IMG/VR virus record: IMGVR_UViG_2695420514_000005
Origin: a virus
Taxonomy: Duplodnaviria; Heunggongvirae; Uroviricota; Caudoviricetes
Direction: 5' to 3' (one strand)
DNA length: 5,731 nt
A model generated the notes under the pieces. That model did no database searches and was not told the origin of the DNA. It saw only the letters and a program-made list of their open reading frames with translations. The translations under genes and the position numbers were made by a program. This document shows positions 3,317 to 4,282 of this stretch, piece by piece (position 1 is the first letter of the stretch; each line of letters starts with the position of its first letter).

Positions 3317-4282
3317 TTACCCCCTGAAGCCTGGCGGAATTTCGGTGTCCGGTTCAGAAATGTGATTCACACAACGCTGTACAGGCGAACGCCCCAGACG
3401 GATAACCAGCTCATCCCATTTTTCGCGAAGCTTTGACGGGCTCATGACGTTTTTTACCCAGAATGGATCCCGCTGTACCCGACCAAACATTTCGCAAATT
3501 TGCCTGTGAGTTCTGCCATCCAGCATCCGCATTGTGCGCACGTCATTGGCCCACACGGTCCAGTTTGGTTCTTTCGGTCGCATGATCTCGCCATCATCGC
3601 TGGCAGCCTGCTCGTAAAGACTCACGATTCGTCCCCAGATCCACTGCGCACAAGCTAAATCTTCCTGGCTACCCCACTGGCGTTTTTTCGCACTGAACAC
3701 AACCGCGTCAGGGTGTCGGGTTAAAAAATCCTGTTCAGCCGTCTGCATGTCCGGTTGCGAAGCTTCCGGACGAGAAGTGTTTTTATTCTCTGTAGTAATC
3801 TCTGTTGTATTCTCTGTAAGATCATCGGGCCATTTTGACCCGATGACATTGGGTCGTTTTGAACCAATGGAGCGTGCCATTTTGACCTCTTCCATCGTGT
3901 CATTTTGACCTGATGGAGCGGCGCATTTTGACCTGATGGATTCGCTCACTTTGCCACCATCTAAAAGCTCACTCTCGTAATTAATCGTGTAAAAATTAGT
4001 CATGTCACGCTTTGATTTGTTGAGCTTTTCGCAACGCAAAAGCCCCAGCGTTTTCAGACTTGCAAATGCGCGTTTTAACGTTGACTCTGACCAGAACGGG
4101 AACTGTTCCAGCCATTGTTCTGTTGTGTTATAAATCCAGCGAACCCCGTTACATTCCATGCCGGAATTAGTATCTCTCAACCAGTAATGCAGCTGCTGCA
4201 GTACAATGGCTTCATTCAGGCCAATTTTCATCGCCAGCTGCGTGTTAATAACCAGTGGGCGTTCAGCAAAAAGAAGACTCAT
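3317..4282 (-). CDS. Phage replication initiator (lambda O-like replisome organiser; ydaU-like) with the iteron origin embedded in its linker
   Basis: N-terminal MSLLFAERPLVINTQLAMKIGLNEAIVLQQLHYWLRD...WSESTLKRAFASLKTLGLL matches the N-terminal DNA-binding domain of phage replisome organisers. A low-complexity linker (...TENTTEITTENKN...) is encoded by the iteron DNA. The C-terminal domain follows and the stop sits 7 nt before the DnaC-like ATG. Start is uncertain: ATG at 4282 (weak SD GGATGG) was preferred over the tracked TTG at 4336 or the ATG at 4324. Confidence 0.8.
   Translation of the reverse strand: MSLLFAERPLVINTQLAMKIGLNEAIVLQQLHYWLRDTNSGMECNGVRWIYNTTEQWLEQFPFWSESTLKRAFASLKTLGLLRCEKLNKSKRDMTNFYTINYESELLDGGKVSESIRSKCAAPSGQNDTMEEVKMARSIGSKRPNVIGSKWPDDLTENTTEITTENKNTSRPEASQPDMQTAEQDFLTRHPDAVVFSAKKRQWGSQEDLACAQWIWGRIVSLYEQAASDDGEIMRPKEPNWTVWANDVRTMRMLDGRTHRQICEMFGRVQRDPFWVKNVMSPSKLREKWDELVIRLGRSPVQRCVNHISEPDTEIPPGFRG
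3781..3821. repeat. AT-rich segment with three TCTCTGT direct repeats, adjacent to the iterons on the O-gene downstream side; candidate DNA-unwinding element
   Basis: TCTCTGT occurs at 3787-3793, 3799-3805 and 3810-3816 (11-12 bp spacing) in an AT-rich stretch immediately downstream, in O-gene orientation, of the iterons. This mirrors the iteron-then-AT-rich layout of lambda ori. Confidence 0.4.
3822..3965. repeat. Iteron array (putative phage origin): six direct repeats at 23-24 bp spacing, core CATTTTGACC followed by TGATGGAG-like flank
   Basis: Core starts at 3831, 3855 (variant CGTTTTGAACC), 3878, 3901 and 3924, with a degenerate sixth copy at 3947 (CACTTTGCCACC). The first copy is embedded in an 8-bp inverted repeat (TCATCGGG...CCCGATGA). 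The array lies inside the O-like coding sequence. Confidence 0.7.

Follow-up and report, generated by a model that had tools for sequence, protein, structure and literature searches.

Six iterons and a conserved CAGAGAnTAC block within an O-like initiator gene: a probable theta-type replication origin of a lambdoid Escherichia coli prophage

The locus

The stretch of DNA considered here (the window) is the 5,731-nucleotide IMG/VR virus record IMGVR_UViG_2695420514_000005, which is part of a lambdoid prophage of Escherichia coli (the closest genome match being NZ_CP180607.1, at 99.8% identity), and the element in question is a set of six direct repeats, or iterons, together with an adjoining repeat block, both of which lie within the minus-strand gene of an O-like replication initiator and are discussed here as the probable replication origin of the prophage. 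Of 5426 complete E. coli genomes, 3150 have a match to the initiator gene, and in 1849 of these the match covers at least 80% of it. The mechanical open reading frame (ORF) extends past the ATG adopted by the Prokaryotic Genome Annotation Pipeline (PGAP) to a TTG at 4336, and the RefSeq/PGAP label for the product is "hypothetical protein". A Pfam scan of the protein returned no family and an NCBIfam scan none except for a 20-residue DnaT-like tail; against PHROGs it matches phrog_391, "replication initiation O-like", with an E value of 1.3e-95. The gene and the features within it, in gene order, are as follows.

3317..4282, minus strand: initiator gene, 321 amino acids from the PGAP ATG; phrog_391
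3959..4282, minus strand: predicted N-terminal winged-helix DNA-binding domain, residues 1-108, with the predicted recognition helix at residues 66-78
3939..3961, unstranded: iteron 1 in gene order, degenerate, GATGGTGGCAAAGTGAGCGAATC; nearer to canonical in orthologues
3916..3938, unstranded: iteron 2, CATCAGGTCAAAATGCGCCGCTC
3893..3915, unstranded: iteron 3, CATCAGGTCAAAATGACACGATG; 8 of 10 dyad positions
3870..3892, unstranded: iteron 4, GAAGAGGTCAAAATGGCACGCTC
3847..3869, unstranded: iteron 5, CATTGGTTCAAAACGACCCAATG; 8 of 10 dyad positions
3823..3845, unstranded: iteron 6, CATCGGGTCAAAATGGCCCGATG, adjoining the putative unwinding block; 9 of 10 dyad positions; kept in a 93-bp deletion variant
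3781..3822, unstranded: CAGAGAnTAC block, three 12-bp repeats with CAGAGA at 3811-3816, 3799-3804 and 3787-3792 on the coding strand
3401..3844, minus strand: span aligned by BLASTP with the linker and C-terminal domain of lambda O, residues 147-294
3320..3376, minus strand: C-terminal tail (...PDTEIPPGFRG), common to Rac YdaU and the DnaT C-terminus

The iteron array

A preliminary description of this DNA had proposed six direct repeats with a 23-bp period, and this holds: positions 3823-3961 consist of six head-to-tail 23-bp units, with start-to-start spacings of 24, 23, 23, 23 and 23. An exact core, CATTTTGACC, is found at 3831, 3878, 3901 and 3924, i.e. in four of the six units; of the other two cores, CGTTTTGAAC at 3855 has two mismatches, and CACTTTGCCA at 3947 has three and represents a degenerate unit (iteron 1 in gene order), which in mEp460_4F5 and a Klebsiella phage reads GGTCAAAGTGA, closer to the canonical form. 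The second motif of the preliminary description, TGATGGAG, is in fact the outer arm of one unit together with the start of the next. Taken in the direction of the gene, the units form near-palindromes about an A-tract (e.g. CATCGGGTCA-AAA-TGGCCCGATG), with arm matches of 5, 5, 8, 5, 8 and 9 out of 10 positions, so that every unit is partly palindromic, as would be expected for a site bound by a dimer. An inverted repeat that had been singled out at one end of the array does exist (arms 3822-3832 and 3836-3846, 10 of 11 positions complementary), but the distinct binding geometry suggested for it does not follow, since all six units are partial palindromes.

Tandem Repeats Finder picks up no more than the last 2.3 copies, and a separate repeat search finds five 23-nt copies; core matches with up to two mismatches over the whole window number 9 against 7.1 expected, which is not significant alone. 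The clustering and periodicity, on the other hand, do reach significance: at period 23 the highest autocorrelation over 92 nt of the gene comes to 0.67, compared with 0.425 ± 0.018 (maximum 0.49) for 300 codon shuffles. No other repeat arrays were found in the window.

The units encode residues 108-154 of 321, between the N- and C-terminal domains, and residues 104-177, encoded by the iterons and the block together, are predicted to be disordered (AlphaFold2 predicted local distance difference test score, pLDDT, of about 25, from a run with a shallow 9-sequence alignment and an overall pLDDT of 53 that was used solely for linker disorder), in keeping with the preliminary placement of the repeats in a linker. 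Repeats in a disordered, low-complexity part of a protein naturally raise the question of whether they are simply coincidental, or are a coding repeat maintained for the sake of the protein and devoid of any function as DNA, and the failure of loose core matches across the window to exceed chance could be quoted in favour of this. It has, in our view, almost no chance of being correct. A period of 23 is not divisible by 3, and the six units accordingly lie in frames 0, 2, 1, 0, 2 and 2; the peptides that they specify (among them SIRSKCAAP, PSGQNDTM and EEVKMARS) bear no relation to one another. The repeat thus exists at the level of the DNA and a protein-level repeat is excluded, so that the frame analysis in effect refutes this explanation. 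The palindromic character of the units also tells against it, as do the conservation of the period across phyla, where the encoded peptides differ, and the covariation of the core with a residue of the DNA-binding domain, both taken up below.

Conservation of the array among homologues

Homologues were sampled by a scan using one genome per species, which returned 80 loci, 75 of them with genes long enough for period analysis, drawn from Enterobacterales, Pantoea, Pseudomonas, Photobacterium, Comamonas, Acinetobacter, Staphylococcus, lactobacilli, Bacillus and Clostridia. Periodicity in orthologous initiator genes had been named beforehand as the point on which the origin reading could fail, and it is present: 60 of the 75 genes have their strongest period at 22-24 bp, the periodic stretch as a rule starting some 310-420 nt from the beginning of the gene, and in 48 of these 60 the score is at least 0.52, above that of every shuffle of the window gene. 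Most homologues have 3-6 iteron copies, and the peptides that these encode differ across phyla while the period persists. The iterons are retained in the close relatives HannyBb, mEp460_4F5 and the Klebsiella phage, in the last of which the N-domain and iterons are kept and the C-terminal domain is different. This is a general pattern, in that the C-domains vary among homologues (lambda-O-like, Phg_2220_C or DnaD-like) while the N-domain and the iterons stay paired; such co-inheritance across C-domain swaps is the modular behaviour expected of a binding domain and its site.

Some E. coli prophages carry a 290-residue allele of the initiator with a clean in-frame deletion of 93 bp (24 + 23 + 23 + 23), in which iterons 2-5 are lost, leaving the degenerate iteron 1, iteron 6 (the best palindrome) and the CAGAGA block; one example (L208:3273-3470, from E. 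coli GCA_054853035.1, compared with window 3823-3938) is also without the DnaC-like and DUF1627 genes. The existence of this allele implies that recombination between iterons occurs, and that deletions of repeats persist only where the number of units lost brings the gene back into frame.

A few loci in the scan bear odd host labels. Gene copies 94-98% identical to the E. coli prophage gene come from metagenome-assembled genomes labelled Bacillota, Veillonella parvula and Collinsella (L008, L013 and L070), and two contigs of 41,200 bp that match each other, both having a Staphylococcus-like phage initiator gene with identical statistics, come from assemblies labelled Nocardioides and Micromonospora (L055 and L058); all five labels are probably binning or contamination artefacts.

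Domains of the initiator

In its C-terminal half the initiator is homologous to lambda O, residues 147-294 giving a BLASTP match of 35% identity over 148 amino acids (E 2e-27). Within this alignment the peptide encoded by the block, DLTENTTEITTENK, falls opposite a peptide from lambda's AT-rich region, and lambda's annotated iterons occupy the equivalent place, upstream of that region; homology of the C-terminal halves combined with alignment of linker to linker implies that the layout is homologous to that of lambda, rather than merely similar. To this extent the lambda-like arrangement of an origin within O, as originally proposed, stands.

The N-terminal domain, however, is not that of lambda O. 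It gives no match to PF04492 (Phage_rep_O), which lambda O itself matches with E 5.7e-36, and alignment of the N-domain profile with the lambda O N-domain using hhalign gives a probability of 0.1%, i.e. the two are unrelated. A second AlphaFold2 run, based on 70 diverse N-domains, gave a good model, to which the closest folds are those of the RepA_N plasmid initiators (PDB 4pta, 4pql and 5kbj). At the sequence level there is no match between RepA_N (PF06970) and the initiator protein; when 46 diverse N-domains were searched at E ≤ 1, RepA_N was absent from the 25 most-matched of 50 families, the weak matches including PadR, HTH_36 and DnaD_N, and profiles of the full-length protein and of the N-domain gave nothing significant when searched against PDB sequences. 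Judged by the fold of the predicted model, the N-domain is a RepA_N/DnaD-like winged helix. The initiator module as modelled is thus a hybrid, in which a winged-helix reader of RepA_N/DnaD-like type is joined to a lambda-O-like C-domain and served by a DnaC-type loader. No Pfam model covers this N-domain; the gene would here gain both a function and a mapped cis site, so that a protein labelled hypothetical in thousands of E. coli genomes could be assigned a role.

Residue 67 and the iteron core

Evidence as to what reads the iterons comes from the base flanking CAAnnTG, by which the iterons can be divided into classes (GGTCAA; GGGCAA or GTGCAA; GGACAA). Among 51 classified loci, the alignment column having the highest mutual information with iteron class, at 1.48 bits, is that of residue 67, with which the predicted recognition helix begins (FPFWSE-S-TLKR). 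The correspondence is as follows.

Residue 67 Ser: T next to CAA in 20 of 23
Residue 67 Asp: G next to CAA in 19 of 19
Residue 67 Lys or Arg: A next to CAA in 9 of 9

Each residue-67 class contains distant lineages, and among Pantoea N-domains with 89% identity a change at residue 67 is accompanied by a change of class. The rule was repeated in an independent viral set, gathered via a different motif, where Ser went with T in 18 of 18 cases, Asp with G in 7 of 7 and Lys with A in 3 of 4. The independent set also contained an additional class, with Glu at residue 67 and C next to CAA (3 of 3).

Recurrence of the rule across phyla argues that the N-domain reads these repeats, and amounts to strong indirect evidence, of a comparative kind, that it binds the iterons. 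The original suggestion that the iteron sequence sets the specificity of the replicon is likewise favoured by the covariation of core class with residue 67, and the rule (Ser, Asp and Lys/Arg with T, G and A respectively) could be used to predict replicon specificity and incompatibility of prophages from sequence.

The CAGAGAnTAC block

Next to the array, on its downstream side in the gene, the three TCTCTGT repeats noted previously in an AT-rich stretch are indeed present, as a 12-bp tandem at 3784-3819; the block as a whole has 28% G+C, and its coding strand is 67% purine. The description as A+T-rich and meltable is apt, in that no duplex segment within the gene is less stable than the 40-mer 3780-3819 (28% G+C; dG -44.3, the mean over the window being -54.9 ± 4.1); what does not hold is the implication that the stretch is generic, as it is a specific and conserved CAGAGAnTAC element. 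The second least stable 40-mer of the gene, 3959-3998 (28% G+C), is on the opposite flank of the array and codes for FYTINY, a conserved wing strand of the N-domain, so that its low stability may be a matter of composition incidental to this coding.

In a set of 80 homologous genes (made up of 75 genome loci, the window and four reference genes), 65 have iterons followed by 2-5 copies of CA(G/A)AGA at 11-12 bp spacing, the consensus of the block being (A/C)CAGAGAnTAC; its start lies 18-21 nt past the last iteron core in 40 of 54 loci. An O gene of a Shiga toxin (Stx) phage having quite different iterons contains the block too, with 97.5% identity across 40 nt. When 50 nt of the window were used as a blastn query, 100 phage records matched, from phages of Acinetobacter, Staphylococcus, Bacillus, Klebsiella, Erwinia, Pseudomonas and others, and where these are annotated the match is nearly always under a replication-initiator gene. 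Searching 2.9 million viral contigs with the pattern CAGAGANTACNNCAGAGANTAC yielded at least 120 stretches; among the matches listed, 118 of 120 lie in one and the same frame of an ORF of about 300 residues, with the motif about 466 nt from its start, and 78 of the ORFs have an N-domain of the window type, 34 another N-domain and a few others again. The stretches listed being almost all in initiator genes, the block could be used to recognise phage origins of this class from sequence. Eight of the loci with N-domains of other types were inspected, and six have their own 21-23-bp iterons just upstream; in the other two, L095 and L116, no clear iteron array was seen. The six are L097, L100, L107, L109, L138 and L146, examples of their iterons being CCTGCAAACAAGATTGCAGG, GGCAATAGGGTGTTACCC and GGTCAAAAACGACC, and in all of these, as in L095, an N-domain without a Pfam family precedes the block.

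It might be supposed that the block is conserved as a linker peptide (a series of T-E-x-T repeats), or else as a recombination joint between N- and C-terminal modules, rather than as an element for unwinding or loading. The shared frame in the listed viral ORFs is what this would lead one to expect, and the block does lie exactly at the boundary across which N- and C-domains are exchanged. Against this, its synonymous sites are strongly biased: the ratio of GAG to GAA among Glu codons is 141:2 in the block but 433:569 over the remainder of those genes (Fisher 1e-43), and the Thr codon ACA is enriched within it, whereas the need for a peptide would not fix synonymous sites across hosts of widely differing G+C. 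In many Firmicute loci, moreover, the first copy of the block is in another frame (as a consequence of 11-bp spacing), and one locus, L059, uses all three frames. Synonymous-site bias and changes of frame together imply selection on the nucleotides of the block, which is, besides, the least stable duplex in the gene. An explanation in terms of peptide or joint alone is therefore unlikely, though a role as a recombination joint could coexist with one in unwinding.

Most simply, the block would be an unwinding and helicase-entry element, as judged from its position, its low stability and its homology to the AT-rich region of lambda. A bolder proposal is that the CAGAGAnTAC repeats form a sequence-specific origin element, a phage counterpart of the oriC 13-mers or DnaA-trios; this we put forward only tentatively, as a possibility short of an even chance. 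The block accompanies at least four types of iteron-binding N-domain and several C-domains, in phages of both Proteobacteria and Firmicutes. That it spans unrelated N- and C-domains argues against recognition by phage-specific domains, and its distribution points instead to a factor or property that all the hosts have in common, for instance the replicative helicase or an intermediate in its loading, the primase, or intrinsic strand opening. Two more specific ideas were considered and set aside. The GATC at 3820-3823 was dropped as a Dam/SeqA site, for want of conservation beyond Enterobacterales. CTG is the site preferred by E. coli primase, and a supply of CTG for primase through TCTCTG fails to explain conservation of the whole 10-mer. 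No description of the CAGAGA block was found in the searchable literature, most subscription journals being beyond reach, so that an earlier description is possible. The block is the least expected of the results reported here, and it raises the question of how these origins open.

Function as an origin

Positions 3781-3961 are very probably a theta-type origin of this lambdoid E. coli prophage, set in the linker-coding part of its own initiator gene. The grounds for this reading are the 23-bp period and its conservation, the homology to lambda O, the predicted disorder of the linker, the residue-67 covariation, the co-travel of N-domain and iterons, the fixed position and synonymous bias of the block, and the adjacency of a gene for a DnaC-like loader.

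As to mechanism, we infer a succession of binding, bending, melting, helicase loading and firing. Dimers of the N-terminal winged-helix domain would bind the six near-palindromic iterons, with helix 66-78 reading the half-site GGTCAA and Ser67 placed at the base next to CAA. The 23-bp spacing, equivalent to about 2.2 helical turns, and the central A-tracts would let the array bend or wrap into a complex resembling the O-some, and stress from this complex would melt the adjacent CAGAGAnTAC block. The lambda-O-like C-domain and the C-terminal tail would then recruit the DnaC-like loader carrying host DnaB, and transcription of the rightward operon from a pR-like promoter would cross the origin, as it does in lambda.

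Several points weigh against this reading and should be borne in mind. One iteron of the six is degenerate. The covariation counts were made without correction for phylogeny and are partly inflated by shared ancestry, while the recognition helix and the role given to residue 67 have a predicted structure as their basis. Common descent of a linker peptide could explain part of the shared frame of CAGAGA in the listed loci. The prophage may be cryptic, there being related prophages that have four iterons deleted and that are without the loader gene. Finally, the searchable literature, from which most subscription journals are missing, has yielded no experiment that tests a member of this N-domain family for binding or replication; nor did it yield a description of this origin when the iteron core, mEp460, oriJ or replisome organizers with iterons were looked for, though one may exist.

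Two other explanations accept the iterons as sites for the initiator. According to the first, they serve control only (autoregulation, titration or keeping out related phages), the start of replication being at another site in the prophage. Plasmid iterons do also serve in copy control, and cloned lambda ori regions are reported to hinder phage growth (PMC3349717, PMC4488673), a point that may be counted on the same side. We nevertheless think it very unlikely: the array is joined directly to the least stable duplex of the gene, the layout is that of two experimentally proven in-gene origins, those of lambda and pSK41 (PMC5703833), and the window holds no second repeat array. According to the second, this is an origin by descent that no longer fires, the prophage being cryptic or defective. 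The neighbourhood resembles that of the cryptic Rac and Qin prophages, variants with the 93-bp iteron deletion and without the loader circulate in E. coli, and the visible prophage sequence amounts to only 5.7 kb; however, the initiator, all six iterons, the block, the loader gene and the cI-, cro- and cII-like genes are intact in the window, and near-identical modules occur in the isolated plaque-forming phages HannyBb, mEp460 and PhiR42_1. Loss of firing is on balance unlikely, though the least so of the alternatives considered.

Comparison with other in-gene origins

An origin within its own initiator gene is already textbook material (lambda, pSK41), and the repeats themselves are in that sense unsurprising. 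The lambda ori likewise lies mid-way in gene O and has tandem, dyad-symmetric iterons with a central A-tract and a spacing of about 20-24 bp (the lambda iteron being TCCCTCAAAACGAGGGA, compared with CGGGTCAAAATGGCCCG here), followed on the downstream side by an A+T-rich, purine-skewed region, and the C-terminal domains are homologous. The differences are that the iteron arms are not the same, that the N-terminal domain here is not Phage_rep_O, and that the partner here is a DnaC/IstB-like AAA+ loader rather than lambda P; furthermore, lambda's own AT-rich region has repeats of the type ACAAAAGA and no exact CAGAGA cluster. Origins of the Stx phages 933W and P27 also have six iterons (PMC7466680), as here, and one Stx-phage O gene has a nearly identical CAGAGA block.

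In pSK41 the N-terminal domain of the RepA_N initiator binds Rep boxes that are central in its own gene, and the initiator can do without the linker that they encode (PMC5703833); iterons of the RepA_N type are described as semi-palindromes that converge on a poly-A tract (PMC7145576). The initiators of pSK41 and pTZ2162 would share with the present one, on the evidence of the model, a winged-helix N-fold that is also that of the DnaD N-terminal domain, and they share with it semi-palindromic iterons that converge on a poly-A tract and lie centrally in the rep gene. It is because both the in-gene Rep boxes of pSK41 and the poly-A semi-palindromes are paralleled here that the fold match can be regarded as informative. 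They differ from it in belonging to Firmicutes plasmids rather than phages, in the sequence match to PF06970 that is absent here, and in having a C-domain that binds primase, where the one here is lambda-O-like and goes with a DnaC-type loader. The gene 18 products of P22 and phage L are lambdoid initiators, distantly related or unrelated to one another, with their own iterons inside the coding region (PMC8022706); their DNA-binding domains and iterons are different, and their partner is a DnaB-type helicase (gp12).

The C-terminal tail, the loader and the gene neighbourhood

The remaining annotated features of the window that bear on the origin are as follows.

2564..3310, minus strand: DnaC-like helicase loader of YdaV type (NF009043, E 2e-152; DnaC NF005931, E 1e-89)
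4263-4784, minus strand: cII/YdaT-like gene
4768-5022, minus strand: P22-Cro-like gene
5022..5051, minus strand: pR-like promoter from a consensus scan, TTGACT, 18-nt spacer, TACTAT; weak evidence alone
5073-5480, plus strand: cI-like repressor

The loader gene is directly downstream of the initiator gene, with genes for DUF1627, DUF977 and DUF551 beyond it in minus-strand gene order. The pR-like promoter, itself weak evidence, would drive the cro-like, cII-like, initiator and loader genes through the origin. A promoter and terminator scan found none inside the origin.

Over its last 61 nt the initiator gene shares 95% identity with the 3' ends of "primosomal protein I" genes in Stx phages of Shigella, and the tail encoded there may be a portable docking peptide for DnaC-type loaders; in phage HannyBb the tail is present without a DnaC-like gene. 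The loader is 95% identical to Rac YdaV, and the order of genes (repressor, cro-like, YdaT-like, initiator, YdaV) is that of the ydaU-ydaV (oriJ) region of Rac, so the earlier labelling of the prophage as of Rac/Qin type is borne out for the loader. It does not extend to the initiator: Rac YdaU (DUF1376), which had been expected to be its orthologue, was rejected, the similarity being limited to the last 19 residues, i.e. the common C-terminal tail, and the internal repeats of ydaU are spaced by 33 bp and differ in sequence. These direct repeats, AAGCAGATGTTCAA, have spacings of 33, 33 and 12 (L087:2972-3063), and may be the iterons of the Rac origin.

Elsewhere in the window, the only match in an Rfam scan was the sok antitoxin RNA (RF01794, 99.8 bits), on the minus strand at 192-357; in the matching genome a hokD toxin gene is annotated beside it, which makes this a hok/sok module within the prophage.

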